Part shown: positions 92-23,669 of the stretch, piece by piece
Layout of the letters: every line of letters starts with the position of its first letter
How positions within the stretch are numbered: position 1 is the first letter of the stretch
DNA from: a virus
Lineage: Duplodnaviria > Caudoviricetes
Virus record (IMG/VR): IMGVR_UViG_3300005764_000080
Location: 1-25,178 of that record
DNA: 25,178 nt
Strand: one strand, 5' to 3'
Notes under the pieces: model-generated
What the model saw: the letters and a program-made list of their open reading frames with translations, nothing else
Database searches by the model: none
What the model was told of the DNA's origin: nothing
Translations under genes and position numbers: made by a program

Positions 92-117
92 CAGTTATAT
101 CGTTTTCAATATAACTG
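92..117 (-). promoter_or_regulatory. Palindromic junction motif, variant B, copy 1 (CAGTTATATCGTTTTCAATATAACTG on +)
   Basis: Identical to 15830-15855 and the reverse complement of 18408-18433; ends 9 nt before the terS ATG. The regulatory role is inferred. Confidence 0.8.
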
Positions 118-126
118 CCGTTCACT

Positions 127-735
127 ATGGCGATCAAAGCGGTAACACTGGACACGTCACAACTGGCAAAGCTACTGGACATCACACCGCAGCATGTGCG
201 CCGACTGGCAGGCGAAGGCATCCTTGAACGGGCACGCGATGAGACGGGCGAACTGTTGCAGGGCCGCTGGGAGATGATCAAAAACAATCACGCTTACATT
301 CACTATCTGAAAAGTCAGGCCCGATGGGACGATAGCAGTGAGACTAAGCGGGCCACGCTGACCAACCGCAAAATTGGCGCTGAAGCAGAGCTAGCGGAGC
401 TCCGGCTCATGCAATTCAAGGGCAAACTGTTCCCGTGGTCGGACGTGGCGTTCTTCATCGGCAGCATGCTGACGCGCTTCAAGGCCCGCATGCAGTCCAT
501 CCCGCAACGAGTGGCAAAGCAGTTGCGCGGGCAGACCGATGAGAAGATCATTCGTAGGGTCATAGGCGACGAGATCGATCGTGGCTTGAAGGAATTGAGC
601 ATGCCGACACCGGACGATCTGCGACGCCAGAGCGAGGAATTACTGGCCACTGAAGGTGCCGATGAAGCAGCATTGAAAGCCAGCGCCAATGGCAGCGAAG
701 AAGAAAGCGACGACACGCCCGACGCTGACGCGTGA
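127..735 (+). CDS. Terminase small subunit (Nu1-like)
   Basis: N-terminal HTH-like segment (QLAKLLDITPQHVRRLAGEGIL) followed by a helical/coiled region; lies directly upstream of and overlaps a GpA-type terL. Confidence 0.85.
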   Translation: MAIKAVTLDTSQLAKLLDITPQHVRRLAGEGILERARDETGELLQGRWEMIKNNHAYIHYLKSQARWDDSSETKRATLTNRKIGAEAELAELRLMQFKGKLFPWSDVAFFIGSMLTRFKARMQSIPQRVAKQLRGQTDEKIIRRVIGDEIDRGLKELSMPTPDDLRRQSEELLATEGADEAALKASANGSEEESDDTPDADA

Positions 736-2659
736 GCAGATCATCGAGCGTCGCAGGCAGCACTATCGCTCGATGGCGCAGCTGAACACGCTGCTCATCG
801 CCGTCCGGCCCGCACGCAAAATCACGCTCACCCAGTGGGCGGACCGCTATCGCATCCTCTCGAGTGAGAGTTCGGCCGAGCCCGGCCAGTGGCTTACGTC
901 CAAAGCGCCATACGAGCGCGATATAATGAACGCTATCAGTGACCCCGAGACACCGCGAGTCGTTGTTCAAAAGGCGTCACAAGTGGGCATCACTGATAGC
1001 GCCATCCTTAACCCATGCGGCTACTTCATCACCGAAGACCCATGCCCCATCCTCATCGTGCAGCCCACCATCGAGCTCGCGGAAGCGTTCTCCACCGATC
1101 GCCTGTCGCCCATGTTGCGCGACAGTCCGCGCCTGAAAGGACGCGTGGGCGATCCGCGCTCGCGCGACAGCGCCAATACCATGAGGCGCAAGGCATTCAA
1201 AGGCGGCTACATCGCACTAGGCGGTGCCAATAGCGCGGCCAGCTTGAGCGGACGCCCGGTGCGCGTGGCGCTACTGGACGAGGTGGACCGCTACCCGGCC
1301 AGCGCGGGCACGGAAGGCAACCCCATCCAGCTTGCCATAGCCAGGACTAGTGCATTTTGGAATCGCAAGGCTGTCATAGTGAGTTCGCCGGGAACGAAGG
1401 GTGTCAGCCATATCGAGCGAGAGATGGAGCAATCCACGTGCGAGCACTGGTATCTGCCATGTCCCGCCCGCAAGTGCGCCTTCATGCAGGAGCTCGACTG
1501 GGATCGCGTGCGGTTCAGCGACCGCACCCATCGTTGCCTGCAATGCAACGAACACTTTCCCAAGTGGAAATGGCTGCAAGGCGAAGGCGAGTGGCGGGCG
1601 CATCGCCCATATGACGAGCGCGGGCGCAAGGTGACCACGCGCGGATTTTACATCAGCGGGCTCTACAACCCGTGGATCGAATGGGACATCTTCATTGACG
1701 AGTTCGTGCAGGCGGTGCGCGCCTACGAGGAGGGCGACGTGGAGCCACTGAAAGCGTTCCGCAACACGCGCCTAGGGCAACTGTGGGAGGACCGGGGCGA
1801 GAAAGTCGATATCGACCTCTACAAGCATCGCCGGGAGCCATACAGCGCGGAGGTGCCCGATGGCGCGTTACTCCTGACCGCAGGCGTGGACGTGGGCGAC
1901 TATGGCGTCAACTATGAAGTCATCGGCTGGGGCAAGGGCCGCGAAAGCTGGGGCATCGAGTATGGGATCATCGATGGCGATCCGCGCGATCGCGACGTGT
2001 GGCTGGCACTGGACGAGCTCGTGTTCTTTCGCGCGTTCGCCGCGAGCGACGGGAAGTTTATGCGCGTGCGCAAGATGGCCGTCGATAGCGGGCACGCTGC
2101 CGACTACGTTTACGCCTACACCAAACAGCGCCAGCCACGCGCCATCGCAGTCAAAGGCGAAGGCGGCATAGGCAAGCCACTGATCAAAGGCGCTGGCACT
2201 CTCACCAAGGGCAACCGGGCGCGACTGCAAATCCTCGGTGTCGATAGCGGGAAGGAGGAAATCGTCAATCGGCTGCTGGTGGGCAAGGTCGGGCCGGGCT
2301 ACTGCCACTTTCCCAAGCTGATGAACGGGGAGGCCTGTCGCGGCTACGACGAGGAGTATTTCAAGGGTCTGACCGCCGAGCGCCGTGTAGTGAAAGCCAA
2401 GAACGGTTTCCGCACCTACATCTGGACAAAAAGGCTGAGCCAGCGCAATGAACCGTTCGACTGCCGCAACTATGGACTGGCTGCGCTGGCCATGATGACC
2501 TTCATCAAGCTCGATGAGATCAAGCGCGACCTATGGACGCCACAGGATACTAAAGCCGAGGGCGAGCGACCGTTCGGTGCCCGGAAGATGGTGGTCGCGT
2601 CTGACGCACGACAGCCTCCACGAGGGCGTTTCGGCGCTCAGAACCGTCCGCTCTCGTGA
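689..2659 (+). CDS. Terminase large subunit, lambda GpA family
   Basis: 656 aa; Walker A-like VVQKASQVGIT, Walker B VALLDEVD, Cys pairs (CPARKC, CLQC), nuclease motifs AGVDVG, AVDSG and NEPFDC. Confidence 0.96.
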   Translation: MAAKKKATTRPTLTREQIIERRRQHYRSMAQLNTLLIAVRPARKITLTQWADRYRILSSESSAEPGQWLTSKAPYERDIMNAISDPETPRVVVQKASQVGITDSAILNPCGYFITEDPCPILIVQPTIELAEAFSTDRLSPMLRDSPRLKGRVGDPRSRDSANTMRRKAFKGGYIALGGANSAASLSGRPVRVALLDEVDRYPASAGTEGNPIQLAIARTSAFWNRKAVIVSSPGTKGVSHIEREMEQSTCEHWYLPCPARKCAFMQELDWDRVRFSDRTHRCLQCNEHFPKWKWLQGEGEWRAHRPYDERGRKVTTRGFYISGLYNPWIEWDIFIDEFVQAVRAYEEGDVEPLKAFRNTRLGQLWEDRGEKVDIDLYKHRREPYSAEVPDGALLLTAGVDVGDYGVNYEVIGWGKGRESWGIEYGIIDGDPRDRDVWLALDELVFFRAFAASDGKFMRVRKMAVDSGHAADYVYAYTKQRQPRAIAVKGEGGIGKPLIKGAGTLTKGNRARLQILGVDSGKEEIVNRLLVGKVGPGYCHFPKLMNGEACRGYDEEYFKGLTAERRVVKAKNGFRTYIWTKRLSQRNEPFDCRNYGLAALAMMTFIKLDEIKRDLWTPQDTKAEGERPFGARKMVVASDARQPPRGRFGAQNRPLS

Positions 2660-2858
2660 CCTGTTCATAGGCCCAACTACATATGACGTTGGCGGCCACG
2701 CGTGTGCGATAGACGTTCGTGCGCGTTTCAGCTGCCACCAGCTGCTCATAGGCCTCGCGCGGGATCATGCACTCCACGCGCACGTTGTTTAAGCGCGGAC
2801 GCCCACGGCTGCGCCCGCTGGATAGCGCTTCGCTGACACGTTGCTGTAGTGATTGCAT
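2550..2858 (-). CDS. Putative ribbon-helix-helix DNA-binding protein with an RGRPR (AT-hook-like) motif
   Basis: RSRGRPRL, then a strand (NVRVECMIP), helix (REAYEQLVAAETRT) and helix (YRTRVAANVICSWAYEQ), judged by eye. Fills the otherwise empty gap 2660-2968; its 3' end overlaps terL. Confidence 0.6.
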   Translation of the reverse strand: MQSLQQRVSEALSSGRSRGRPRLNNVRVECMIPREAYEQLVAAETRTNVYRTRVAANVICSWAYEQVTRADGSERRNALVEAVVRQTRPPSSGHRTVARPRL

Positions 2859-2968
2859 AACTGCCTACGAAGTAGGTCGAAACCCCATGGGAAGTCAAGG
2901 AATTTCCTGAGTATTTTATTCCACAGGCTTGACGCCGACATTTGCACTAGGCGTAACCTCCGCGCCGA

Positions 2969-3265
2969 ATGGGACAGCCAGTCACAGTTGTTACTCCACC
3001 TGAGGAGGTCGTGCTTGAGCCGCTAACTTGTCCATGGGCCAAGGATGGCCTCCAAAAGGCACTCAACGGCATGGTGGGCGCGTCGGCGGGCGTGCACAGT
3101 TACGGCATAGGCAGCCGCCACGTGCGTTTCAAGGACGCTGCCGAGCAAGCCAAGAGCGTGGACTACTGGATGAAGATGGTGGAGTTCTACTGCGGCGCGG
3201 ATGCACTCCCGCCAGCCATAACCGGGCGCGACACCGCCATGCGCGTCATACCGCGCGACCTATGA
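2969..3265 (+). CDS. gpW-like head-tail joining protein
   Basis: Small gene between terL and portal; SYGIGSRHVRF resembles the gpW beta-hairpin. Confidence 0.65.
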   Translation: MGQPVTVVTPPEEVVLEPLTCPWAKDGLQKALNGMVGASAGVHSYGIGSRHVRFKDAAEQAKSVDYWMKMVEFYCGADALPPAITGRDTAMRVIPRDL

Positions 3266-3269
3266 AAAG

Positions 3270-3294
3270 CAGTTATATTGAATTCAATATAAGC
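3270..3294 (+). promoter_or_regulatory. Palindromic junction motif, variant A, copy 2 (CAGTTATATTGAATTCAATATAAGC)
   Basis: Perfect 20-bp palindrome TTATATTGAATTCAATATAA at 3273-3292, between the gpW-like gene and portal. Confidence 0.8.
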
Positions 3295-3305
3295 TGTCAC
3301 GCCCC

Positions 3306-5000
3306 ATGAGAACTGCCACTCTCACCAGTGGCCGCAATGGCCACGATAGATTCGCCAGCGGGCGCATGCCACCGGGCGTGTTGTTAGATCACACGGGCGC
3401 ACCCATCAACGTGCGGAACGCCATCGTGCCCAGCATAGGCTTCGGCACCACTGGCTACGGCCAGTATGGCGCGAGCCTGCACAAGAACGCACTGGCCGGG
3501 TGGCTGTGGCGCGGCAGCGATGCCGATGGCGACATAGGGCTGAACATCCAAATCCTGCGTGAACGCTCGCGCGACGCGTTCATGGGCATTCCGCTGGCCA
3601 CGGGCGCGGTGGAGACCTTGGACACCAACGTCATAGGCACAGGCTTGGAAGCCAATCCGCAGGTGGATGGCGAGTCCCTAGGGCTGACCCCGGATGCTAC
3701 CATGAAGCTCAACAAGGAACTGAAGCTCAAGTTCGGCTGGTGGGCCAACGATCCGCGCGAGTGCGACTATGAAGCCAAGCACACGTTCGGCACCCTTCAA
3801 CACATCGGCTTCCAATCCATGTTGCTCAGCGGCGATTGCCCTGTGCTTTTCCCATTGAAGCCTCGTCCGGGCGTTCTGTTCGACTTGCGAGTGCGCATAC
3901 TCGAGGCCGATCGCATCCGCGACCCCATGCCCTTCGATCCATCGAAGAACATCTTCAACGGCGTGGAGCAGACCGACGATGGCGAGATACAGGCGTATCA
4001 CATTAGCGAGATACACCCGCTGGCGATGCTGCGCTTCCGATGGCAGGGCATCATCGCGCCCGGTCGCACGTTTCGCGTCGAGCCCTATGGCCCGCTGTCA
4101 GGAAGGCGCAACATGGTGCTGTTAATGCGGCCCGAGAGACCGGAACAGCGCCGTGGTGTGCCTATACTGGCCGTGTGCCTAGAGTTGCTCAAACAGATGG
4201 GCCGCTACGTGGACGCCACCGTCCTAGGCGCTGTCATCCAGAGTTACTTCACAGCGTTCATCACATCGGAGTTCCCTGACCCCACCATTTTCGAGTCGTT
4301 GCTCACCGATGAGCAGAAAAAGGAGATTTTCGACTTCAACCCCTACAACGTCCAGCTGGGACCGGGCATAGTGAATTTCATGAGGCCCGGCCATCAGGTC
4401 AATTTCGCCACGCCCACACAGCCGCAATCCACGTTCGGCGATTTCACCATAGCGGTAGCCAAGTTCATAGGCAGCGCCACGGGCGTGCCCTACGAGGTGT
4501 TACTCAAGCAGTATAACAGCAGCTATAGCGCGTCTAGGGCTGCGCTGCTGGACTTTTGGAAGCGGGTGCGCAAGTTTCGCGCTCTCATGGCGGAAGGCAT
4601 GTGCCAGCCTGCCTACGAGGAATGGATGGCCGATGCCATGGCACTCAACGTCATCGAGGGCTTCAAGGGCAACTTCGATGATCCCTACGTGCGGCGTGCC
4701 ATGACGCGCTGCATCTGGACTGGCGCGAGTGCTGGCTCGATCGATCCCGTCAAGGAAGTGGCCGCAGCTGATCAGAAGGTGCGCTGTGGCTTTTCCACCA
4801 TTGAGCGCGAGTCGTCCGAACTCAACGGGAGCGACTATCGCGACAACATTCGCCAAGCGGCAGTCGAGAAACAGGACTTTGAAGACGAAGGCCTCGTCTA
4901 TCCGCCATACCGCCCATTGGCGGGCGCTGGATCGGGCCTGAGCGCAGCCGCACCTCCGGGCTCCACGTCGCCCGGCCAACCCGCAGGAGCACAATCATGA
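3306..5000 (+). CDS. Portal protein, lambda family
   Basis: 564 aa; motifs LRERSRD, RPEQRRGVP, YNSSYSASRAALL and IDPVKEV; position after terminase/gpW. Confidence 0.95.
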   Translation: MRTATLTSGRNGHDRFASGRMPPGVLLDHTGAPINVRNAIVPSIGFGTTGYGQYGASLHKNALAGWLWRGSDADGDIGLNIQILRERSRDAFMGIPLATGAVETLDTNVIGTGLEANPQVDGESLGLTPDATMKLNKELKLKFGWWANDPRECDYEAKHTFGTLQHIGFQSMLLSGDCPVLFPLKPRPGVLFDLRVRILEADRIRDPMPFDPSKNIFNGVEQTDDGEIQAYHISEIHPLAMLRFRWQGIIAPGRTFRVEPYGPLSGRRNMVLLMRPERPEQRRGVPILAVCLELLKQMGRYVDATVLGAVIQSYFTAFITSEFPDPTIFESLLTDEQKKEIFDFNPYNVQLGPGIVNFMRPGHQVNFATPTQPQSTFGDFTIAVAKFIGSATGVPYEVLLKQYNSSYSASRAALLDFWKRVRKFRALMAEGMCQPAYEEWMADAMALNVIEGFKGNFDDPYVRRAMTRCIWTGASAGSIDPVKEVAAADQKVRCGFSTIERESSELNGSDYRDNIRQAAVEKQDFEDEGLVYPPYRPLAGAGSGLSAAAPPGSTSPGQPAGAQS

Positions 5001-6193
5001 ACACCGATTGGTATCGTTTCATAGTGAATCAGGCTGAGCCCGAGCCCGAGAGCGCGGAACTGCTCATCTTCGACGCCATAGGCAACTGGGAGGAGATAGG
5101 CGAGGTGAGCGCGAAAGCATTCTCCAACTCGCTGTCGCAGCTGCCCAAGAGCGTGAAACGCATCGAGCTCCACATAAACTCGCCGGGAGGCTCGCTATTC
5201 GACGCCAGTGCGATCTTCTCGCGTCTCGCCGATCATAGGAGCGAAAAACTTGTTTACCTCGATGGCCTGTGCGCCAGCGCGGCCACGCTTGTCGCGATGG
5301 TGGGGCACAAGATTTACGCGCGAGCGAACTCGACCATGATGATCCATTTGCCATCTGGCCTGTCTGTTGGAAATGCCGACGATATGCGCAAGATGGCGAC
5401 CGCGCTCGATACGATCACGGACTCGATGGTGAACGTGTATGAGCGTCGCACGCGCCAGCCACGCGACGTGATACGCGCGATGCTGGCAGCGGAAACGTGG
5501 ATGTCACCCGAACAGGCGGTAGCCAATGGCTTCGCCGATGAAGTGCGCGGCGTCATCAAGGCCGCAGCCATGGTGGGCGACAAGAAAGCCGTGTTCAACG
5601 GCGTCACTTTCGATCTGTCGAGATTTCACAATGTCCCGGCGTTTAGCGCCACTCAACAACAAACAGAAGGAGAACCTATGGCACAGCCAACACCACAACC
5701 CACGCCGACGCCTGCGCCACCTGCGCCGACGCCGACACCAAACCCGGCACCGCCGCAACCGCCGGAAAATGCCGGGCAACCGCCCGCAGAACAGCCCGTC
5801 CCCGGCACGAGGATTGCCGAGAACGCGTCCGGCGACCCCGGACAAGGTCAACGTCCACCGGATGACCCAAAAACGGCAGGAGCACGAGCGGAGCGTGCCC
5901 GAATCACGGCACTCATGAAGCTCGACAGGCCAGCCACCCATGAGATCGTCAACAAGGCCATCGAAGACGGTCGCACCGCTGGCGACATTGCAGCGGAATG
6001 CATGGAGGCCATGGACAAGGTGCGTGGCCAAGATCGACGTCGCGCAGACGCGCGAGTTCTGGATGGTATTCCGGGCTCGGATGCGACGCCATCGGGCGAC
6101 GGTGGCACCGACTTCGGCGAGCGACTGAAGACTGCGGTCACCAACAAGCTCAAACATCGCAATCGCTCTGCGATCCTCAACGGTCGTAACTAA
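4997..6193 (+). CDS. ClpP-type head maturation protease with C-terminal scaffold region
   Basis: LHINSPGGS, DGLCASAAT (catalytic Ser), MMIH and ETWMSPEQAVANGFAD; then a Pro-rich linker and helical ERARITAL region. Confidence 0.93.
   Translation: MNTDWYRFIVNQAEPEPESAELLIFDAIGNWEEIGEVSAKAFSNSLSQLPKSVKRIELHINSPGGSLFDASAIFSRLADHRSEKLVYLDGLCASAATLVAMVGHKIYARANSTMMIHLPSGLSVGNADDMRKMATALDTITDSMVNVYERRTRQPRDVIRAMLAAETWMSPEQAVANGFADEVRGVIKAAAMVGDKKAVFNGVTFDLSRFHNVPAFSATQQQTEGEPMAQPTPQPTPTPAPPAPTPTPNPAPPQPPENAGQPPAEQPVPGTRIAENASGDPGQGQRPPDDPKTAGARAERARITALMKLDRPATHEIVNKAIEDGRTAGDIAAECMEAMDKVRGQDRRRADARVLDGIPGSDATPSGDGGTDFGERLKTAVTNKLKHRNRSAILNGRN
5678..6193 (+). CDS. Probable nested in-frame scaffolding protein (lambda Nu3-like), 171 aa
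   Basis: GAAGGAGA SD at 5666-5673, then CCT-ATG in frame at the end of the protease domain (MAQPTPQPTP...). Confidence 0.65.
   Translation: MAQPTPQPTPTPAPPAPTPTPNPAPPQPPENAGQPPAEQPVPGTRIAENASGDPGQGQRPPDDPKTAGARAERARITALMKLDRPATHEIVNKAIEDGRTAGDIAAECMEAMDKVRGQDRRRADARVLDGIPGSDATPSGDGGTDFGERLKTAVTNKLKHRNRSAILNGRN
5784..5910. repeat. Inverted-repeat (MITE/REP-like) element, copy 1, in frame within the protease/scaffold linker
   Basis: 5784-5819 is the reverse complement of 16180-16214 apart from one extra T. The right arm is degenerate and the end is approximate. Confidence 0.7.
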
Positions 6194-6225
6194 CCTCAAC
6201 CCATAGAGAAAGGACACAACCAACC

Positions 6226-6630
6226 ATGGCAATCAAAGACTCAGTCAACTTCGCCAACATCCAGTCGTTCGATAGCGAGGACTGGTTTGTCAGGCGTTAC
6301 CCATACACGGACGCTGGCGCACTCACAGTGGCGGTGGCGAAGATCGGCCACCTCGTGAAGTTCGACGCCACGCGCTCGGCAGTTCTGGGCGCAGTAGCGG
6401 CGGACGACGCGGCGCTGGAAGGCATCATCGTCGATCTGCCCGACAACACCGAGGTCCCATCGGGTGCCAACAAAAAGACGGTCGCCGTCGCACTCAATGG
6501 GTCGTTCGACAAGACCACGGTCATGTATTCGGACAACACGCAGCCCATCTCAGCGGCTGGGCTGGCGCGTCTGCGCGACATGAACATCTTCCTCGATCCA
6601 GCCACACCAGCTGGGCCGTTCGCACCCTAA
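6226..6630 (+). CDS. Head decoration protein (gpD-like)
   Basis: 134 aa directly upstream of the major capsid gene; C-terminal LARLRDMNIFL pattern; GAAAGGA SD. Confidence 0.8.
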   Translation: MAIKDSVNFANIQSFDSEDWFVRRYPYTDAGALTVAVAKIGHLVKFDATRSAVLGAVAADDAALEGIIVDLPDNTEVPSGANKKTVAVALNGSFDKTTVMYSDNTQPISAAGLARLRDMNIFLDPATPAGPFAP

Positions 6631-6663
6631 CCGCAACCCACCAATCGAAAGGACACTACCAAC

Positions 6664-8106
6664 ATGGCTAACATGAATCCCAACTACGAGCCTCGCACGC
6701 TGCTCGCTCCATTCGAGCAAGGCCCGCTCGTTCACACGTTCCTGCGCGACACGTTCTTCAGTGCGCGGGAGTATCCACCGACGAACCTAGTGGAGTTCGA
6801 CTTCCGTCGAGGTCGCCGGAAAATGGCTCCATTCGTGGCACCGCTGGTGGGCGGCAAAATCATGGAGCGTCAAGGCTTCGAGACTCGCTTCTATCGGGCA
6901 CCACGCATCGCGCCTGTGCGCGCACTGCGCATCCCCGATCTGGAGGCGCGTCTGCCCGGAGAGACGATCTATCAGGGGCGCACCGCAGCCGATCGCGCGG
7001 CGGACCTGCTCGCAGAGGATGCGATCTACCTCGATGAGGCCATCACCCGTCGCGAGGAATGGATGTGCCGTTCACTGTTGATCAATGGTGGGATCACAGT
7101 GACAGCCGACAACGGCTACACCAACGTCATCAACTACATGGAGTCGAGTCAGGGCGCACCCAACAACCACTTCGTGCCCACTATCAAGTGGGACCAGACG
7201 AACAGCGATCCGCTGGCTGACTTGGAAGCTGCCCGCCTAGCGGTCATCCGCGATAGCGGCATCAGCCCGAACATAGTGTTGTTTGGAGCGACGGCCAAGA
7301 CGGCGTTCCTCAACAACGCCAATGTAGCGAAGTTCCTCGATTCCATCCGGTTCCAGATCGCCACCATCAAGCCCGTCATCCAAGACGAGGCGGTGGTCAT
7401 CTTCGGCCAGCAAGCGGGCCTGCAATACTACTCCTATGCGGAGTATTTTGAAGACGATGCAGGCACACTCTACCCGATGCTCCCGCCAGAGCTCGTGCTA
7501 CTGGCGAGCACTAACACGCCCAACAAGATCGTGTATGGCGCATACACCCAGCTGGAGGACGCGAAGGCCCAACGCTTCGTGACCTACCAGTCGAGCCGCA
7601 TCCCGTTCGTCTATGGCGAGGAGGATGACGGTCAGCTGTTCTATCGGCTCACCTCGTGCCCGCTCCCAATGCCCGTGGACGTGCTCGGGTGGCGGATCGT
7701 GGAAGCGATCACAGGCGCCAGCTATCCGTTCCCGACACCGGGCTCCAGTGGGGCGCAGTTTGAGCAGCCCTACTTCGCGCCTGACAAGGTCACAGAGCAG
7801 GGCGTCGAAGGCGGGAAAGAGCCCGAAGGCAAGGAAGGCATCGACTTCGTGCCCGGCCCATCGACCGTGAAAGGCGAGGAGGCCCGCAAGAAAGCCATCG
7901 AGGCTCAGACCAAGCCGCAGAAGTCCACCGTCGATGGGACCACAGCCGAGGAGGAAGCCAATGGCGACGATTTGGAAAGCAAGACGGTCGCCGAGTTGAA
8001 GGAGATCGCGGCAGACGAGGGCGTTGACCTCGAAGGTGCACATCGCAAGGATGACATCATCGCGGCCATCGAAGCCCACCGCGAAGAGGAACAGGGCAAT
8101 AGCTAG
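6664..8106 (+). CDS. Major capsid protein (lambda E family) with an extra C-terminal Rho-N/HeH-like domain
   Basis: FLRDTFF, MAPFVAP, ITRREEWMC and KW..SDPLADL motifs; about 130-aa extension ending DDLESKTVAELKEIAADEGVDLEGAHRKDDIIAAIE. Confidence 0.93.
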   Translation: MANMNPNYEPRTLLAPFEQGPLVHTFLRDTFFSAREYPPTNLVEFDFRRGRRKMAPFVAPLVGGKIMERQGFETRFYRAPRIAPVRALRIPDLEARLPGETIYQGRTAADRAADLLAEDAIYLDEAITRREEWMCRSLLINGGITVTADNGYTNVINYMESSQGAPNNHFVPTIKWDQTNSDPLADLEAARLAVIRDSGISPNIVLFGATAKTAFLNNANVAKFLDSIRFQIATIKPVIQDEAVVIFGQQAGLQYYSYAEYFEDDAGTLYPMLPPELVLLASTNTPNKIVYGAYTQLEDAKAQRFVTYQSSRIPFVYGEEDDGQLFYRLTSCPLPMPVDVLGWRIVEAITGASYPFPTPGSSGAQFEQPYFAPDKVTEQGVEGGKEPEGKEGIDFVPGPSTVKGEEARKKAIEAQTKPQKSTVDGTTAEEEANGDDLESKTVAELKEIAADEGVDLEGAHRKDDIIAAIEAHREEEQGNS

Positions 8107-8114
8107 GAGAAGTC

Positions 8115-8139
8115 GCTTATATTGAATTCAATATAACTG
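8115..8139 (-). promoter_or_regulatory. Palindromic junction motif, variant A, copy 3 (inverted)
   Basis: GCTTATATTGAATTCAATATAACTG is the exact reverse complement of 3270-3294; 9 nt before ATG 8149. Confidence 0.8.
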
Positions 8140-8148
8140 CTTTCACCT

Positions 8149-8307: not shown

Positions 8308-8313
8308 CTGCCT

Positions 8314-8682: not shown

Positions 8683-8684
8683 CC

Positions 8685-15519: not shown

Positions 15520-15829
15520 AAAAACAGCAGCAAAACCGCAGCAAGAGGAAATCCCCATGGAGGGCACTGGCGTGGCACCAGTGAAAATACCAAAGGTGGA
15601 CAAGCTGGCCCGCAGCTATGTCGAGGCACGCGATTCGCGCATAGACGCGCTCAACACGGAAGTGGACGCGAAAGCGAAACTGGTGGAAGCCCTGCATTTC
15701 CACAAGGATCAGCTGACACTGCCCGATGGGCGCATCGTGTATCACTACGACGAGAGCGTCATCACGCTGGAGCCGGGCAAGGAAAAGCTCAGCGTCAAAG
15801 CCTCCCATACCGGAGAGGAGGTGGAGTGA
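15512..15829 (+). CDS. Hypothetical protein
   Basis: MAKKTAAK... overlapping the tape measure stop; start could be 15506. Confidence 0.65.
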   Translation: MAKKTAAKPQQEEIPMEGTGVAPVKIPKVDKLARSYVEARDSRIDALNTEVDAKAKLVEALHFHKDQLTLPDGRIVYHYDESVITLEPGKEKLSVKASHTGEEVE

Positions 15830-15855
15830 CAGTTATATCGTTTTCAATATAACTG
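15830..15855 (-). promoter_or_regulatory. Palindromic junction motif, variant B, copy 5
   Basis: Identical to 92-117; starts right after the stop at 15829 and, like copy 1, is followed by TTCACT-ATG. Confidence 0.8.
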
Positions 15856-15865
15856 ACTTTTCACT

Positions 15866-16099
15866 ATGAGGACTTACACGAGCATACAGGGCGACTGGTG
15901 GGATTTGATCGCGCTCCGGGTGTATGGGATGAAGCGCGGAGACGATCACCTCATGCACAAGCTCATCGAGGCGAACTACAACATCAGGGAGATTTGCAAC
16001 TTCCCCGCTGGCGTGGTCGTCATAGTGCCAGACCTCCCCGTGAAAGCCACCATCCCGCTAGTCCCGTGGAAGAGCACTTCCATCGTGACCAACCCGTAA
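15866..16099 (+). CDS. Tail protein X (LysM-like)
   Basis: YTSIQGDWWDLIALRVYG...LIEAN...FPAGV..VP...PW pattern. Confidence 0.92.
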   Translation: MRTYTSIQGDWWDLIALRVYGMKRGDDHLMHKLIEANYNIREICNFPAGVVVIVPDLPVKATIPLVPWKSTSIVTNP

Positions 16100-16214
16100 A
16101 ATGCCGAGGATGCCGTTAAAAGCATTTTGTTTGGCGGTGCTGGGCGTTGATCCACCAAGCACCCCAAACGGCACGAGAACGGCATCCTCGTGCCGGGGAC
16201 GGGCTGTTCTGCGG
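16098..16214. repeat. Inverted-repeat (MITE/REP-like) element, copy 2, intergenic and highly structured
   Basis: 13-bp perfect IR at 16105-16117/16178-16190 plus internal stems; arm sequence shared with 5784-5819 and 24061-24080. Confidence 0.8.
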
Positions 16215-16266
16215 CTGATCAAAACCCGTTTTTTGACCGGGAGGCCCGGAAAGTGAAGGTTGCACT

Positions 16267-17571
16267 ATGATCTTCCAAGTCCGCGCCGCACGCCCGCAGC
16301 TGACCCTCAACGGCACCGACTATTACAACAAGCTGGCTCCATACTTCCTCAACATGACCTACACGGACAGCTGCGATGGACAGAAGGCCGATGACTTCCA
16401 GCTGCAACTGGCTGACCGCGATCGCAAGTTCATCAACGAGTGGATGCCCAAGCCCGGCACGTTCCTCGACGTGGGCGTCTATTGCGAGCGATGGTTCGCG
16501 CCTTTCGCTTCCGCGCTGGTGCTCAATTGCGGGCGCTTCTGGATCGACTCGGTCGAGTTCGAGCTCCCGCAACACACGGTGAGTATCAAGGCGGCTTCCA
16601 TACCCACGAACGTGCGCGTAAAGGCCGCGAATGACACACGCGGATGGGACAAGAACACGCTGCGCGACATAGCGCAACAGGTGGCAACCGAGAGCAAGAT
16701 GGAGTTGAAGTATGCCGATGGTGCCACTAACCCCAAATACGATCGAGTGGAGCAGACCGAGGAGAGCGCACTGGCGTTCCTTCAGAAGCGGTGCCACGAC
16801 GCCAAGCTGTGCATCAAGGTCAGCAACAATACCATCTACATTTTCGATGAGCAAAAGGCGGAGGAGGCCGCGCCTGCGTTCACGCTCGTGTATGGAGACG
16901 GGAGCGCACCCTCGCCCATAGGCGCATTCGGCGGACTCCTAAGCGGCGCGAGCGACGTGACAGGCGCACTTTCGGGCGGAGGCAAGGTGTTCCGCCTAGC
17001 GGGAGCAGTGTTCACGCTCATGGTGAACGACACTGCCAAGACCGCCAACGTGCGCTACACCAAACCGGGCACAGGCGATACCACGCTGGAGACGTTCACG
17101 GACACTGGCTCCCCATCGCGTGGCGGACTGATCAGCGGTGGCGGTGGCGCGAGCCAGCCCATCACTGGCGTTAGCGTGCCATCGTCCGAAAGCGCAGACG
17201 AAGGCACAGGCGATCCGGAAGATGTTGACACCAACTACAACGAGAATCCCGGCACCGAGGATCAGGACGAGGGCAGCAGCGGAGATGGCGCACCCACCAC
17301 TCGCGTGGACGAAGGGCTGGGTTCCACGTGGAACAAAGAGGACATGGAGGGCCAGCTGGCCAAGGCCAAGCTGCGATCGAAGAACAAGGACAAGATTCAT
17401 GCCAAGATCGAAATGTCCATCGGCAACCCGCTGGTGGCTGCGGGCCAGACATTCACGATGGTGGGCGTGGGGCAGTTCGATGGCAAGTGGTTCGCGGAAA
17501 CGATCGACCATCGCGTAGGCCCGGAATACACCACGATCATCAATGCCCGGCGCTGTTTAACAGGTTACTAA
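16267..17571 (+). CDS. Baseplate hub / late control protein D
   Basis: YTDS.DGQKADDFQLQLADRD, EQTEESALAFL and GNPLVAAG..GVGQFDGKW motifs; contains Gly/Ser/acidic insertions. Confidence 0.9.
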   Translation: MIFQVRAARPQLTLNGTDYYNKLAPYFLNMTYTDSCDGQKADDFQLQLADRDRKFINEWMPKPGTFLDVGVYCERWFAPFASALVLNCGRFWIDSVEFELPQHTVSIKAASIPTNVRVKAANDTRGWDKNTLRDIAQQVATESKMELKYADGATNPKYDRVEQTEESALAFLQKRCHDAKLCIKVSNNTIYIFDEQKAEEAAPAFTLVYGDGSAPSPIGAFGGLLSGASDVTGALSGGGKVFRLAGAVFTLMVNDTAKTANVRYTKPGTGDTTLETFTDTGSPSRGGLISGGGGASQPITGVSVPSSESADEGTGDPEDVDTNYNENPGTEDQDEGSSGDGAPTTRVDEGLGSTWNKEDMEGQLAKAKLRSKNKDKIHAKIEMSIGNPLVAAGQTFTMVGVGQFDGKWFAETIDHRVGPEYTTIINARRCLTGY

Positions 17572-17572
17572 C

Positions 17573-18430
17573 ATGGGACTCAAAAACCTACTGGCTGACA
17601 CCAACTACACGGCGGCTTTCGACAATCGCTTCAAGAACGCCATCGTCATAGGCAAGGTGTCCAAGATCGAGTGCAGCGACAAAGGCGCGAACGTGCGCGT
17701 CATGCTCAACGACAAGGTCGATCTGAACAAGCAACCCCTCATCACCAAGCCCATCCCGGTGTGGCAGGCCAGTGCTGGCGTCCAGATGCAGGGCAGCGGT
17801 GCGGGCGCAAGCAACGGCTCGGGCCACCAAAAGAAAAGTTTCGCCATGCCGCGCATAGGCCAGAACGTCGTCCTAGTGAAGCTGCCCAATGCCACTGGCG
17901 ATTACCTGCTCCTAGGCACCTTCTATACGAAGAACGATCCGCCACCTGTCACTGATCCGCGCGTGGACTACTGCGAGTGGGAGAACGGCCACACGGAGAA
18001 ATTCGACAGCAACGACAATGCAGACGTGTTTCTCACGCAGGATTTCAAGGCTGGATGGAAAGGCACCTACAAAAAGGACGTCAGCCTCAAGACCACCGAC
18101 AGCGCCAAGTTCAACATCGAAGCCGATGGCGACGTGCTGGTCAAATCGGCCAACGGCAACGTCACAGTGGAAAGCCCCACTGGCACGGTCACCATCAGTC
18201 AGGACACGATTGAGCTACAAGGCAACAGCGCCATCAACATCACCGCGCCCGAAATCAAGTTGACAGGCCATGTTACCATCATAGGCGACATGATCGAGAC
18301 AGGCCACCACGTGGACAGCAAAGGCCCGCACGCGAGCTCCATGCAGGAACGCGACGAACTACTGGCCCGCGTGAACGCGCTCGAGGAGAGGGTGAAACGA
18401 TTGGAGGCAGTTATATTGAAAACGATATAA
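17573..18430 (+). CDS. Baseplate spike protein V
   Basis: OB-fold IGKVS and MPRIGQNVV motifs, beta-helix-like repeats, His cluster GHHVDSKGPH and a short C-terminal coiled coil. Confidence 0.88.
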   Translation: MGLKNLLADTNYTAAFDNRFKNAIVIGKVSKIECSDKGANVRVMLNDKVDLNKQPLITKPIPVWQASAGVQMQGSGAGASNGSGHQKKSFAMPRIGQNVVLVKLPNATGDYLLLGTFYTKNDPPPVTDPRVDYCEWENGHTEKFDSNDNADVFLTQDFKAGWKGTYKKDVSLKTTDSAKFNIEADGDVLVKSANGNVTVESPTGTVTISQDTIELQGNSAINITAPEIKLTGHVTIIGDMIETGHHVDSKGPHASSMQERDELLARVNALEERVKRLEAVILKTI

Positions 18431-18433
18431 CTG
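18408..18433 (+). promoter_or_regulatory. Palindromic junction motif, variant B, copy 6 (CAGTTATATTGAAAACGATATAACTG)
   Basis: Exact reverse complement of copies 1 and 5; encodes the last codons and stop of gpV; 9 nt before the next ATG. Confidence 0.8.
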
Positions 18434-18442
18434 GTTTTACCT

Positions 18443-18907
18443 ATGGCAATGGAAGGACTTTTTGGCGCAATAGTGTTCGGCAAGCTACAGGGCCGCATCA
18501 TGACCTTCCACGAGATCGAGCGCAGTTATCGCGGGCGCTTTGGCTCGCACATGGTGCACATGCGCAAGCCATTGCTGGAATGGGCGGGCAACGATCTGCT
18601 CAAGCTGGACTATCGCATCGGGCTCAACGCTTCATGGTGCGGCGATCCCAACCCGCTGCTGGCCCAATGGCATTTCTTCCATGAGAACGCGCTGGCCGCA
18701 CCGCTCATCGTGGGCGGCAAACCGATGGGACCGGGCTTGTCCATGTTCGTCATCACCGAACTCAAGGAACGCCACAAGCACTGGCTCAAAGGCGGCAAGC
18801 TCATAGCCGTGGAGCTAGACGTGCACTTTGAGGAATACATACCGTTCACCGAGGGCTTGCTATCGCAGTTCGGTGTGCCGGGCTTCGTGGGAAGTGGGGC
18901 CATATGA
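18443..18907 (+). CDS. GpU-like tail tube initiator
   Basis: GLFGAIVF, H...KPLLEWAG, PLIVGGK and FEEY motifs. Confidence 0.85.
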   Translation: MAMEGLFGAIVFGKLQGRIMTFHEIERSYRGRFGSHMVHMRKPLLEWAGNDLLKLDYRIGLNASWCGDPNPLLAQWHFFHENALAAPLIVGGKPMGPGLSMFVITELKERHKHWLKGGKLIAVELDVHFEEYIPFTEGLLSQFGVPGFVGSGAI

Positions 18908-19698
18908 TAGGCGTTGCACCTCTCCCATCGCAGACGGGTAACACGGTCGAGCTAGGCGCTAACTGGCGCGTCCAATTCGCGGACGTGGATGGCACGCCAT
19001 TGAGCATGATCTCGTTCCGCTACATCGACTTTGGAGCAATCAGCTACAAGGAGATTTTTCAGAATGTAAAGACCATACTCGCGACCCCGTTGTTTTCGGC
19101 CGCGCTAGAGCGCACGTTAGGAGTCGATCAGTCCATCGTCGATCGTCCCATCAACGAGGCCGCAAACGTCACCATCGCCATCCTGCAAGCACTCACGTAT
19201 TGGGAGCCTAGGTGCGAGATCATGGACATAGCGTTTGAAGCTGACGCGCTCAATGGGCACCTCACAGTGTTGTTACAACTCAAGATCAGGAACGTCATCT
19301 ATGGCACCGACACTCCTTACACTAAGAATCACGCTTTCACCGCAACGGGGACACCCAAGCTGCCTGCACCTAGCCTGCCGCCCATCTTGGAGCCAGTGGA
19401 AGGGCCACCCGGCCCGCAAGGGCCGACGGGCGAACGCGGGAGCCTGTGGTTCACGGGCGAGGGCGCACCACCCGCGCCCACGGCCATGCGCCCGATCGTA
19501 AGCGGCGGCACCCCGGTGCCCGGCCCAGTCGGGCCAAAGGGCGAGGCAGGCACGCGCAGTAGCATCTGGCTGCAAGGCACAGGCGATCCCACCAGCGCCA
19601 CGGGCGTGCTCCCATACGACATGTATCTGAACACCGCCAACGGCGACGTGTGGCAGTTCGATGGGACAACCTCAACGTGGAGGAAACTAGGGCGATGA
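18904..19698 (+). CDS. Baseplate W/gp25-like protein with a collagen-like C-terminal extension
   Basis: IFQNVKTILAT...RTLGV...WEPRC core; then GPPGPQGPTGERGSLWFTGEG and GPVGPKGEAGTRSSIWLQGTG repeats. Confidence 0.85.
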   Translation: MIGVAPLPSQTGNTVELGANWRVQFADVDGTPLSMISFRYIDFGAISYKEIFQNVKTILATPLFSAALERTLGVDQSIVDRPINEAANVTIAILQALTYWEPRCEIMDIAFEADALNGHLTVLLQLKIRNVIYGTDTPYTKNHAFTATGTPKLPAPSLPPILEPVEGPPGPQGPTGERGSLWFTGEGAPPAPTAMRPIVSGGTPVPGPVGPKGEAGTRSSIWLQGTGDPTSATGVLPYDMYLNTANGDVWQFDGTTSTWRKLGR

Positions 19699-20210
19699 GT
19701 TGGGACCTAATAGGCAACATCAGAGGGCCACAAGGGCCACCCGGCGTGGTCGCGCCAGCGGGCTATGTCATGGGCGAAGCGGCTGGTGGCGCGATCAATG
19801 GCACCAACAAGCTGTTCTCCACGGTTCAATCATACCTAGGCAGTTCATTGGAAGTCTATCTGAACGGGCTGCGCATGAGGCGCATCGACGATTACACGGA
19901 AGTCAGCGGCACCACCTTTCAATTTGTCATAGCGCCGTTGCCCGGTGACACCATCTCTCTCGATTACCTGCTGCCTAGCGAGGCTGGTGGCACTAACATC
20001 TACGGCGAAACGCCCGCTGGCCTAGTCAACGGGAGTAACAAGGTTTTCACTACCAGCTTCGTCTATTCGCCCGGCCTCATCGCCATCTTCCGCAGTGGAC
20101 TGCGACTGAGAAATCCGGATGACTACAGCGAAACTGGCCCTAAACAATTTACACTGGTAGATGCTCCATTATCGGGCGATAACTTGAGCGTTGACTACAT
20201 ACAACCCTAG
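19695..20210 (+). CDS. Virion structural protein with two tandem ~65-aa beta-rich repeats
   Basis: ATGA overlap at 19695 preferred over 19650; repeats GE..G..NG.NK.F...GLR....DY.E.....F....AP..GD....DY. Confidence 0.75.
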   Translation: MSWDLIGNIRGPQGPPGVVAPAGYVMGEAAGGAINGTNKLFSTVQSYLGSSLEVYLNGLRMRRIDDYTEVSGTTFQFVIAPLPGDTISLDYLLPSEAGGTNIYGETPAGLVNGSNKVFTTSFVYSPGLIAIFRSGLRLRNPDDYSETGPKQFTLVDAPLSGDNLSVDYIQP

Positions 20211-20221
20211 AAACAAGCACT

Positions 20222-21283
20222 ATGAGCGCAACACAAATCCATGGTAACAAACAAATCCAGAATGCCACCATTCTCGATGCCAACATCGCGGCGGCAGCTG
20301 CGATCCAAACGTCCAAGCTGGCGCAGGGCGCATTGTTCATCAAGAGCGATGGCTCGCTAGCGTTTGGTGCCGATCAGTCGCATGGCGGCTTCAAGATCAC
20401 CAACCTAGCTGACCCAGTGAATCCCACTGATGCCGCGACTAGGCAGTGGGTGCTGGCCAACATCGCTGGTGGCGTGGTGTCATCGTGCACCGTGAAGGCA
20501 GCTACCACGGCCAACATCACGCTCTCGGCCACGCAATCGGTCGATGGCATCGCGCTTAGCGCGGGCGACCTGTGCCTAGTGAAGAATCAAACCACGGCAT
20601 CGGCCAATGGCGTTTACACGGTCGCATCTGGAGCGTGGACGCGTTACGCGGCCATGGACACGTGGGCTGAGGTGCCGGGCATGCTGGTGAGCGTGCAACA
20701 GGGCACGATCAACGGGGATACGGTGTGGCTCTCCACAGCGGACGCAGGCGGCACCCTAGGCTCAACCAGCATCACCTTTGTCCAGCTGCCCGGTCCAAGT
20801 GACATCACTGCGGGCGCGGGTATGACGCGCACAGGTCAGCAGATCGACATAGTGGCTGCCGACAACTCGCTCACTATCAACGCCGATAACATGCAGGTGA
20901 AAATCGACCCGGCCACGGGCGGCAACCATGGCGGCTTGACTGTGGCGGCAGGCGGCGTGGGCGTTGCCATCGACACCACGATGCTCTCCATCCTGGCAGG
21001 CCCACTTCTCAGTCTGAAACCCAACATTTTCATAGCGGCGTCCAACATGATCACGCGCGAGACGCCCAGTGGCACGATCGATGGCGCGAACACCGCATTC
21101 ACGTTAGCGAACACGCCATCGCCTGCTGGCAGCGAGCAACTCTTTCTCAATGGCATCCTGTTGGAGCCGGGCGCGGGCAACGATTACACCATAACCGGGG
21201 CAGCGATCACGATGCTGTCAGCGCCACCTACGGGCAGTCGCCTCAAGGCAAACTACCTCAACCGAGCGCTAGCCCCGACATAA
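20222..21283 (+). CDS. Fibre-like virion structural protein
   Basis: KITNLADPVNPTDAAT and VKAATTANITLS...LVKNQT..NGVY motifs, common in phage fibres; a third copy of the beta repeat at the C-terminus. Confidence 0.78.
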   Translation: MSATQIHGNKQIQNATILDANIAAAAAIQTSKLAQGALFIKSDGSLAFGADQSHGGFKITNLADPVNPTDAATRQWVLANIAGGVVSSCTVKAATTANITLSATQSVDGIALSAGDLCLVKNQTTASANGVYTVASGAWTRYAAMDTWAEVPGMLVSVQQGTINGDTVWLSTADAGGTLGSTSITFVQLPGPSDITAGAGMTRTGQQIDIVAADNSLTINADNMQVKIDPATGGNHGGLTVAAGGVGVAIDTTMLSILAGPLLSLKPNIFIAASNMITRETPSGTIDGANTAFTLANTPSPAGSEQLFLNGILLEPGAGNDYTITGAAITMLSAPPTGSRLKANYLNRALAPT

Positions 21284-21287
21284 AACT

Positions 21288-21608
21288 ATGCCAGCAACAC
21301 AGATACGCGGCACACAAGTCCAAGATGGCACCATCCAGCGTGCCGATGTGGACACGACTACGTCAGCGAAGGCGCTCATTACGAAGGTGCTCGATGGCCA
21401 AGGCATCAAGTCCTCGGCCTCGGGCGTGGATGCTGGCACAGGCGACGTTACCGTCGCGATCGATCAGACGGGCGCGAATCCCGTGACCACGTTCTACATC
21501 GGCACCAAGGCGCGGCTGGTGCAGCATCCCACGCTCAACGGGCTACGACTGGAAGTGAAAGGCACCGATAACAACTGGTATACTGCGGCAGATTGGACAC
21601 ACGCATGA
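21288..21608 (+). CDS. Small structural protein sharing an N-terminal motif with the upstream gene
   Basis: MPATQIRGTQVQDGTIQRADV versus MSATQIHGNKQIQNATILDANI. Confidence 0.7.
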   Translation: MPATQIRGTQVQDGTIQRADVDTTTSAKALITKVLDGQGIKSSASGVDAGTGDVTVAIDQTGANPVTTFYIGTKARLVQHPTLNGLRLEVKGTDNNWYTAADWTHA

Positions 21609-23638
21609 AAACTAATTCACCGACTCGTTACGCATCGGCGATCCTTGTTGCCCTCATTCTGGTGCTCTTGTGGTTTTGCACTAAAACGACCTATGGAGAC
21701 ACCACGCTTTATGGCACCACGACTGTAACCAACCCCGGCACGTTCACCATCCAAAGCGGAGTGACCGTGAGCGCACCACAGCTGGAGCCCGCTCTGGGCA
21801 ACCCATCGACCAACGGCTACGTGCTATCGAGCACGACAGCGGGCGTGCGTTCGTGGATTGCGCCCGCGACGGGCGGTGGCGGTGGAACACCGGGCGGCAG
21901 CGACACCTATGTTCAGTTCAACGATGCCGGAGTATTCGGTGGGGACTCCACGTTCTTTTGGCAGAAAGCCAACCATCGGCTTTGGCTGCCAGCTACAAGT
22001 GGCGGCTTGGGGCAGGGCATGTTTCTCGGCGGCTATGGGCAGTTGCAAACATATGACTCAGGCACCGTCAGCTATTTGTTCTTCGCTACTAACAAGTATT
22101 GGACTGGCTCGGCATGGGCTGACGTAGGCTATAACCGGGTAGGTGGGATGCTACAGGTGGAAAACGACCAATTGGTATATTACACTATGAACACTGGCAC
22201 GACTTCGACGGAACAGTGGAGGGCTAATCCCAATGGTATATTCGATCTAAGGGCTGCGGGAATGTTCGGCTGGGGTTCTACTACGCCGACTTCAGCCGTT
22301 GACACTGCTCTCGCCCGTAACTCCGCTGGGGTAGTCGAGATCAACAATGGCACAGCAGGGCAGTATCGGGATTTGTTTCTGCGTAACCTGACCGTTAGCG
22401 GAACCTGCACGGGATGCGGTGGCGGTGGCGGTGGCACAGTAACCAGCTTCAGCGCGGGCGATCTGTCACCGCTGTTCACTACCAGCGAAACAAATCCCAC
22501 GACAACGCCAGCCCTGAGTTTCACTCTGTCCACGGCGGCAGCCAACACAGTCTTTGGCAATGCCACAGCGTCCACGGCTGCGCCCACATTCAGTTCGTCG
22601 CCCCGGTTCACTGCAATTGGCAACCTGACAACCAATGGATTTGTCACCACGAGTGGAGGAGTGGGAACACTGGGAGTGGACGCTACAGTCTATACGCCAT
22701 CGACTCGCTTGCTCACCATAGCAGGGCTGGCAGCTAACTTGAGCGTTGATCGCACATGGACGCTGGATCAAATCTTAGCCAACAACGGTGCCACACTCGG
22801 CACAGGCATCATCAAACGCACAGCCGCAAACACGCTGGCGATCGCCACCGCTGGCACTGACTACCTCACAGGCAACCAGACAATCACGCTCACGGGAGAC
22901 ACGACAGGCAGCGGGACTACGGCGATCACAACCACGACAGGCAAGGTCAATGGAGTAACATATCCAGCCAGTCCCGGCACCAACACCGTCCCGGTAATCA
23001 CCACCACTAACACGGTAACTTATCAGGCTGTCCCGACTTTGGCTGGCGGCTTGCCCACAGGCGGCACGGCCAATCAGGTGCTATCGAAAGTCGATGCTAC
23101 CAATTACAACACAGCGTGGGTAAGCCAGCCGTTGTTCATCGTCAATGGCAACAGCGGCACCGGGCAGAGCGTTGGCACAAGCGATACCTACATCACCAAT
23201 TCCACCTGCACGCTGCCATCGGGCACACTGTTCGCCGCTGGCGGTCAATACAAGCTGCGCTTCGTAATGTCCAAGACTGCGGCTGGCGTAGCCAGCTGGG
23301 TTTTGTCAATCAGGCTGGGCGCTTTCGGGAACACATCGGACACCGTTGTTGCCACGACCACCATCGGCCCGCAGACGGCTGCTGTCGATGCACTATCTTG
23401 CGACCTCAGCGTCAATATCGGCTCAACTGGCGCAACGGCTAACACCATCAGCTACATGCTTTACTCGCACGCCCTAGCTGCCAACACAGGTTATGGCGGC
23501 CCGGCGGTTACACCCGTGAACTTTACTCAGTCCGCCACGTTCAACCAGACCACTGCCAAATCCATCGGTATCAGTTTCAATGGCGGCGCAGCACACGCAG
23601 GAACAGTAAACATCGTCCAAGCCCAATACACCCAATGA
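21605..23638 (+). CDS. Thr/Gly-rich fibre/adhesin-like protein with an N-terminal signal peptide or TM anchor
   Basis: ATGA-coupled start MKTNSPTRYASAILVALILVLLWFCTKTTYG; fibre-type motifs PGGSDTYVQFND, GGGGGGTVTS, TITLTGDTTGSG and PTGGTANQVLSK. Confidence 0.72.
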   Translation: MKTNSPTRYASAILVALILVLLWFCTKTTYGDTTLYGTTTVTNPGTFTIQSGVTVSAPQLEPALGNPSTNGYVLSSTTAGVRSWIAPATGGGGGTPGGSDTYVQFNDAGVFGGDSTFFWQKANHRLWLPATSGGLGQGMFLGGYGQLQTYDSGTVSYLFFATNKYWTGSAWADVGYNRVGGMLQVENDQLVYYTMNTGTTSTEQWRANPNGIFDLRAAGMFGWGSTTPTSAVDTALARNSAGVVEINNGTAGQYRDLFLRNLTVSGTCTGCGGGGGGTVTSFSAGDLSPLFTTSETNPTTTPALSFTLSTAAANTVFGNATASTAAPTFSSSPRFTAIGNLTTNGFVTTSGGVGTLGVDATVYTPSTRLLTIAGLAANLSVDRTWTLDQILANNGATLGTGIIKRTAANTLAIATAGTDYLTGNQTITLTGDTTGSGTTAITTTTGKVNGVTYPASPGTNTVPVITTTNTVTYQAVPTLAGGLPTGGTANQVLSKVDATNYNTAWVSQPLFIVNGNSGTGQSVGTSDTYITNSTCTLPSGTLFAAGGQYKLRFVMSKTAAGVASWVLSIRLGAFGNTSDTVVATTTIGPQTAAVDALSCDLSVNIGSTGATANTISYMLYSHALAANTGYGGPAVTPVNFTQSATFNQTTAKSIGISFNGGAAHAGTVNIVQAQYTQ

Positions 23639-23644
23639 TTGTAT

Positions 23645-23669
23645 GCTTATATTGAATTCAATATAACTG
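23645..23669 (-). promoter_or_regulatory. Palindromic junction motif, variant A, copy 7 (inverted)
   Basis: Identical to 8115-8139; 12 nt before ATG 23682. Confidence 0.8.

Follow-up and report, generated by a model that had tools for sequence, protein, structure and literature searches.

Evenly spread palindromes in an uncultured soil phage and its relatives: probable loading sites for a ParA-less ParB/KorB-type protein

The closest described counterpart of the elements treated here is KorB, which, as set out in the available parts of two reports (PMC11790492, PMC13768133), acts from twelve palindromic OB sites across the ~60 kb of the IncP plasmid RK2 as a sliding cytidine triphosphate (CTP) clamp and represses at a distance. 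Mycobacteriophages of cluster O also carry a dispersed dyad, the binder of which is not assigned in the accessible portion of PMC4351075, which names the ParB-like gp90 as one of three proteins predicted to bind DNA. Phages commonly encode orphan ParB-fold proteins, often fused to methyltransferases, and the available sections of PMC12704722 give no DNA target for them. Here we describe an array of palindromes in 25,178 nt of DNA from a virus of the Caudoviricetes (IMG/VR record IMGVR_UViG_3300005764_000080, positions 1 to 25,178; this whole stretch is referred to as the window), which represents the left half of an uncultured soil phage genome. We think it likely that the palindromes are loading sites for a phage-encoded, ParA-less protein of the ParB/KorB type that would cover the genome, most likely damping or timing transcription.

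An earlier note on this DNA had listed seven exact palindromes in two variants, and exact matching confirmed all of them with their positions and orientations (Table 1). The same applies to the spacing of 2.6-5.2 kb and the distance of 9-24 nt to the next ATG that it had given: the measured gaps are 3178, 4844, 3756, 3960, 2578 and 5236 nt (range 2578-5236 nt) and the distances 9-24 nt. One copy had been placed over the gpV stop; the copy at 18408 does overlap the stop of the open reading frame (ORF) 17573-18430, a frame whose gpV label is weakly supported, by its position and a weak PHROG baseplate-assembly match (E 8e-7). In this DNA of 59% GC the motif TTATAT-N8-ATATAA is found seven times even with up to two mismatches allowed, compared with a mean of 0.07 and a maximum of 1 in 100 shuffled sequences, and because the count stays at seven, hidden degenerate copies are absent. 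The palindromic nature of the element was correctly recognised in the earlier note, but 11-bp arms around a 4-bp A/T centre are a better read of the dyad than the 9-bp arms with an 8-bp spacer proposed there.

The array extends beyond the window. The contig L001 is very likely the continuation of the same phage, because a contig from run X1, reaching 5 kb beyond the window end, contains a further variant-A copy with a flank identical to that in L001, and because the baseplate J gene, within which the window ends, is also the gene within which L001 starts. Two further exact copies in L001, the eighth and ninth, lie ~5.2 and 3.9 kb further on, and a loose end in run X2 hints at one more, which would be the tenth.

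A scan with the large terminase subunit (TerL) placed ~44 of 75 loci in a close clade with 61-77% identity. Many of its members have a repeated dyad of their own and all of these follow one design: 11-bp arms, a 4-bp A/T centre, TT nearly invariant at arm positions 4-5 and usually YG beside the centre. The earlier note had proposed looking for copies in related phages, and what the relatives contain are their own variants of this shared design, distributed genome-wide. The sequence of the site differs between sister phages while being uniform within each; the sites of G018 have the same variant-A core as the window and those of L135 correspond to the inner part of variant B. Whole records contain 16 (G001), 7 (G002), 6 (G016), 9 (G017), 13 (G018), 6 (G015), 12 (G004) and 9 (G003) copies; G007 and G010 have two each. 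No such palindrome family was found in G005, G006, G011, G012 and G014 or in the fragments G008 and G009 (G013 was excluded as a copy of G011). Sites in the relatives occupy early as well as late regions, so that the distributed array suggested by the earlier note is upheld and, in these phages, reaches beyond the late operon.

In 8 of 11 records the spacing of the sites is more even than that of random gene starts (p<0.03; the null was built on crude ORF calls, and G015, G017 and G027 were not significant). For the window the coefficient of variation is 0.23 (p=0.006). In G001 and G004 every site that can be oriented points in the same direction on the chromosome, and this direction is kept where the arms are transcribed in opposite senses. 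At the end of record G024, positions 35693-36080 hold six ~72-bp units in tandem, all of which contain a palindrome. An unrelated phage group (L046-L050, TerL 46%) has many dispersed copies of another palindrome, GTGTCAC-TTT-GTGACAC, and the site-less G006 (L102-L103) contains repeated asymmetric motifs in its early region (AAGTGCGCAAGTGGAA and a repeated start cassette), which are possibly early promoters.

AT-rich dyads near start codons might in principle be the box of a host transcription factor or late promoters of the phage, the latter being one of the roles considered in the earlier note. We find this scarcely credible. The sequence differs among sister phages while being uniform inside each of them, the early regions also carry sites, and no plus-strand promoter of the sigma-70 type overlaps a site (5 promoter matches in 20 kb, with 6.3 expected by chance). 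The arm-spacer-arm look and the identity of the copies might also evoke recombinase targets, or linkers bounding exchangeable modules, especially since the 3′ flanks of the window copies resemble one another, which suggests cassette copying. The palindrome may also bear some likeness to the ModE box, to dif/lox sites and to the conserved inverted repeats of phiC31, and a literature search turned up no paper on these last repeats. Recombinase targets or module linkers nevertheless appear very unlikely. A profile search of 13 records (PF07508 not covered) found a resolvase in none and a tyrosine integrase only in the site-less G005 (1/13), and public contigs, which cannot show absence, contained no joint between two sites. 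Relatedness between phages also continues unbroken at the sites (mean rho 0.41 at five site junctions compared with 0.04 at 15 others). The recombinase sites and module breakpoints envisaged in the earlier note are thus not supported. Among relatives the junction around the palindrome at 18408 is the most conserved one, and at 3262-3265 an out-of-frame ATGA is the remnant of a stop/start overlap present in relatives.

The candidate binder is a ParB-fold/helix-turn-helix (HTH) protein of 230-300 aa encoded by relatives, which emerged when selected ORFs of early regions were scanned with Pfam and PHROG and the 13 records were searched with profiles. Its 54 homologues, 49 of which were aligned, form a tight family. 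The AF2 model (pLDDT 87) has pNOB8 ParB, KorB, Noc and ParB as its top folds in Foldseek, and profile (HMM) matches are to Noc (the best, E 6e-6) and ParB; a single-sequence search of the PDB returned nothing. The candidate retains GxxR and the Box III Asn, G54, R57 and N91 being invariant in the aligned sequences. The central HTH corresponds to model helices 144-152 and 156-168 and was aligned to ParB-family structures over 200+ columns. The protein is also predicted to have a C-terminal dimerisation domain: its last 41 residues were modelled as a homodimeric hairpin with a score of 0.42, which is at the pass mark (20 of the 30 solved pairs attain it, as does 1 of the 23 single chains), the best of three controls reaching 0.01, with agreement between runs in 100% of contacts and a pLDDT of at least 77. 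In other phages the ParB-HTH module is fused to methyltransferases, and among named phages it gave one weak match only, in Gordonia phage Ecliptus.

The ParB fold, the HTH and the predicted dimer domain, together with the absence of an integrase from the site-bearing genomes searched, would also suit dispersed centromeres of a plasmid-like prophage resembling N15, moved by a ParA of the host or by a motor that escaped detection; dispersed centromere-like sites are described for N15 and RK2 in the accessible text of PMC3235114. We attach little probability to such centromeres. The candidate begins directly at the ParB fold, the LG-R/K-GL arm that binds ParA being absent from the alignment consensus, and profile searches found an AAA_31 ParA in 0/13 records (control 14/14) and an HTH_3 repressor of the CI type in 0/13. 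Moreover, there are sister phages that lack the whole system.

Several observations connect the gene of the candidate, parB, to the palindromes. The ParB-HTH profile matches 9 of 32 records (three loci were not included in this search), 6 of them in this clade, and all 6 have sites. Among the five ParB-negative records that are ≥85% complete four have no sites; the exception is G004, the record of which ends where parB lies in G001. This co-occurrence gives a Fisher p of 0.015 (6/0/1/4), with the distant provirus G005 included in the table. Site-less lineages are scattered, forcing at least three changes on the sheath and capsid trees, and the sites in the structural operon therefore track the early module rather than structural ancestry. 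In 5 of 6 genomes parB has a site no further than 250 nt away, while other early genes reach at most 3/8 or 3/7, and 9 of 16 metagenome parB loci have a site in or near the gene. An internal palindrome (≥9/10 pairs) is present in 10 of 29 additional parB homologues, a set from which loci of the clade and one duplicate had been removed, compared with 1.2% of 2090 background windows. Finally, the more two ParB proteins differ, the more their sites tend to do so (20 pairs, Mantel r 0.67, p 0.0005), and position 3 of the recognition helix is Arg where the innermost arm base is C (3 cases) and His or Ser mostly where it is G (10 cases); G018, L135 and L140 have His there. Gene adjacency, internal palindromes and protein-site covariation thus point to ParB itself, beyond its module, and this protein probably is what binds the sites.

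A number of points weigh against this assignment and the mode of action that we derive from it. Neither the window nor L001 contains a parB gene, and the ParB-site pairing in the phage of the window is therefore inferred from its relatives. At 26 bp the phage sites contrast with the 13-bp core of the KorB operator. Among the metagenome parB loci 7 of 16 (1.1-6.8 kb) have no site. Both the 300-460 nt interval within which internal palindromes were counted and the Arg/His rule were picked after inspection of the data; in the three whole records checked a second copy of the internal palindrome was found only in G022, and in L135 the internal palindrome is unlike the flanking sites. Covariation specific to the helix is weak (partial r 0.29, p 0.025 for 20 pairs, p 0.10 for the 13 clade pairs, many tests), and adjacency is not unique to parB, as gpU also adjoins a site in 7 of 8 genomes. 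Both catalytic Glu residues are replaced, the one of the GERR box (GltR) and the one before the Box III Asn (srN at IEN), making CTP hydrolysis by the candidate doubtful; the available part of PMC13229309 names E93 as a hydrolysis residue, and according to that of PMC12704722 nucleotide specificity is not predictable from sequence. Lastly, the early module is a confounding factor, with ERF and an SF2 helicase in ParB-positive genomes and RecT and DnaB in the ParB-negative, site-less ones.

For this last reason the sites might be bound by some other protein of the ERF/helicase module, for instance the conserved three-helix protein encoded upstream of ERF or a replication initiator, with ParB only travelling along. 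All eight large site-bearing genomes encode the three-helix protein, and in three of the eight it has a site within 250 nt. However, its model has no PDB match at E≤0.001, and a winged-HTH initiator query matches only 3 of the 8 genomes. Palindromes of the same design furthermore lie inside parB homologues on contigs devoid of the module (G023, G024). On balance we consider such a binder unlikely.

With ParB as the binder, a dimer would occupy each palindrome and then close as a nucleotide-gated clamp, which might slide a few kilobases away from its site. The even spacing of the sites would then let ParB cover the whole genome. Clamp closure and sliding, for which we rely on analogy with the described proteins, seem somewhat more probable than not. 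Such coverage would most likely damp or time transcription, and this is the purpose that we tentatively favour; coating or organising the DNA is a nearly as probable purpose, the recruitment of enzymes an improbable one, and partition quite improbable. More speculatively, these could be lytic soil phages with a private address code, in which a ParA-less ParB clamp loads every few kilobases and coats the genome, the helix and the 26-bp site diverge together between sister phages, the sites are lost genome-wide upon swapping of the early module, and the palindrome doubles as an mRNA hairpin in ribosome-binding sites (RBS), a single element thus serving DNA and translation alike.

The position of many copies does raise the question of a function at the RNA level. 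The Shine-Dalgarno (SD) sequence lies 5′ of the palindrome at 12 of 22 site-bearing late starts (site ≤16 nt from the start, eight of the 22 being gpU junctions) compared with 20 of 181 other starts having it at equal distance, and a nearby SD sequence is found at 1 of the 22 compared with 104 of the 181. For gpU it is displaced in 7 of 8 site-bearing genomes and has normal spacing in all eight genomes without a site there; in the window displacement occurs at 3 of 6 qualifying starts. Folding gives a hairpin for each of the seven window palindromes, and for six of them z is below -2. An SD sequence separated from its AUG by a hairpin, as for T4 genes 25 and 38, is thus present at these 12 of 22 starts overall, and folding of the palindrome in the mRNA would restore the spacing between the two. 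One might even suppose that the sites work mainly as RNA hairpins, which would damp translation or serve in processing and thereby fix the proportions of the virion proteins. We consider this improbable: many copies are distant from any start, an Rfam search of the sites gave no match, and the identical sequence, even spacing and link to ParB would be left unexplained. In addition, mismatches in the transcribed strand comprise 19 G•U and 37 A•C (copies are not independent, and strands were taken from gene maps), and the transcribed strand folds better than the opposite one in 4 versus 5 cases at split sites and 30 versus 42 elsewhere. Because A•C mismatches outnumber G•U and neither strand folds better, the site is not tuned as RNA; at split sites alone the counts (6 G•U, 3 A•C) are too few to judge. 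The earlier note had preferred a DNA-level site for a dimer over an RNA signal; both orientations and the A•C excess agree with the DNA site, but its dismissal of RNA went too far in view of the order SD-palindrome-AUG. We read the split RBS as a DNA site accommodated in a crowded junction, possibly adding some translational tuning, and since many copies separate the SD sequence from the AUG, the hairpin probably does matter for translation.

The remaining features of the window concern its gene content and ends. Positions 1-25 include a motif containing GCGGAGAG that also opens L002, L003, L006, L008, L013 and L036, ~0.6-0.7 kb before terL, and probably marks a fixed genome end of the cohesive type. 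A search of genome contigs yielded no close prophage (best TerL identity 46%); named phages reached at most 45% and gave no meaningful match in a nucleotide search (E about 4). A second, GC-rich repeat family lies within or across coding regions at 5784-5814 (+), 16184-16214 (-) and 24057-24089 (+), consisting of a 31-nt exact inverted pair and a partial copy; one copy is conserved in L003, and G001 and G004 have similar short intergenic repeats. A sigma-70-like promoter at 12441-12470 ends 8 nt 5′ of the tail chaperone ATG (12479), which suggests a near-leaderless internal transcript, and relatives have comparable elements after the tube gene. The major capsid protein (6664-8106) has a C-terminal extension with PHROG matches to Rho_N-like and endonuclease VII-family proteins. 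Between the tape measure and gpX-like genes lies a small gene (15506-15829), the family of which also occurs close to terS or within the early part of related genomes, often adjoining a site. In L001 a DNA-modification cluster (2083-6471, minus strand) comprises a ParB-like gene, a TGT-like gene, a glutamine amidotransferase gene and unknowns, and differs from the FolE/QueD/QueE cluster of G001, G002, G004, G016 and G017. The ParB-like gene of modification clusters was discarded as a candidate binder, being absent from the site-rich G018 and G015 and present in the site-less G005; likewise, recruitment of deazaguanine enzymes was discarded as a general role, G018 and G015 having sites and no FolE/QueD match.

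Table 1. Palindromes, associated ribosome-binding sequences and the late operon in the window
Feature	Position	Strand or orientation	Context
Palindrome variant B	92..117	reverse	9 nt 5′ of terS ATG (127)
Palindrome variant A	3270..3294	+	between gpW-like gene stop (3265) and portal ATG (3306); 11 nt to ATG
Palindrome variant A	8115..8139	reverse	3′ of major capsid gene; 9 nt to ATG 8149
Palindrome variant A	11870..11894	+	sheath/tube junction; 24 nt to ATG 11919
Palindrome variant B	15830..15855	reverse	adjoins stop of ORF 15506-15829; 10 nt to gpX-like ATG (15866)
Palindrome variant B	18408..18433	+	overlaps last codons and stop of ORF 17573-18430; 9 nt to gpU ATG (18443)
Palindrome variant A	23645..23669	reverse	12 nt to ATG 23682
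SD-like AGGAG	8105..8109	+	5′ of palindrome; split RBS of 52-aa gene at 8149
SD-like AGGAGGT	15816..15822	+	5′ of palindrome; split RBS of gpX-like gene 15866
SD GGAGG	18403..18407	+	abuts palindrome; split RBS of gpU
Intact tube-gene RBS AGGAGG	11905-11910	+	palindrome 11870-11894 upstream; ATG 11919
Late operon	127..25178	+	lambda-type terminase, portal, Clp protease, gpE-type capsid, P2-like contractile tail, lysozyme, baseplate J start; continues in L001

A literature search, in which subscription literature was thinly covered, found no paper that links an orphan ParB of a phage to dispersed sites on its own genome. The placement of palindromes inside split RBS illustrates how 26-bp sites can be taken up by a genome with little spare room. 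The clade offers a stand-alone orphan ParB with about twenty protein-site pairs, which makes it directly possible to test whether and how the protein binds, uses nucleotides, slides and selects its site; it may also yield orthogonal ParB/site pairs. If our interpretation is true, whole-replicon control of the KorB style would extend to phages without genes for partition or integration.

The comparison with systems described in the available parts of the literature shows likenesses and differences in each case. The hairpins of T4 genes 25 and 38 likewise shorten an over-long spacing between SD and AUG (PMC3014915), but they are features of single genes, whereas here a repeated, putative DNA-binding site recurs in several RBS. 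ParB-like activators of phage DNA-modifying enzymes also represent a ParB fold outside segregation, and the clade has such genes in its modification clusters; unlike our candidate, those proteins are without a DNA-binding domain in the account given (PMC13229309). With Noc and other orphan ParB-CTPases the candidate shares the ParB fold, the HTH, a dimerisation domain and the lack of a ParA-binding motif (PMC12704722), while HerB binds the host chromosome (PMC13370423) and the targets here would lie on the phage itself. The 17-bp repeat of cluster O is equally a dispersed dyad with an A/T centre and no orientation bias in phages lacking an integrase or parAB, but it occurs in 34 copies, about a third of them intragenic, is unevenly spread and has an unrelated sequence (PMC4351075). 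Cluster A stoperators also lie in short gaps between genes all over the genome, with over twenty sites for the repressor, but these are asymmetric 13-mers that follow the direction of transcription and are occupied by a monomer (PMC9283540). In contrast, dyads in both orientations underlie plus-strand genes in the window and a single orientation persists across the opposite arms of G001, and the candidate is of the ParB type. KorB-OB is approached by the ParB-family protein, by multiple dispersed palindromes (6-16 per genome) and by KorB being among the top fold matches. It differs in that KorB also partitions and needs KorA or TrbA to lock, according to the accessible descriptions, while the phages were found without ParA and no known locking partner turned up, no search for KorA or TrbA having been made. 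It differs further in that the phage site has 26 bp and varies between sisters, that the replicon belongs to a phage which apparently does not integrate, and that the catalytic glutamates are missing. We conclude that the system is neither a member of ParABS, because it has no ParA, nor a stoperator system, and that it is one that would work like KorB-OB.

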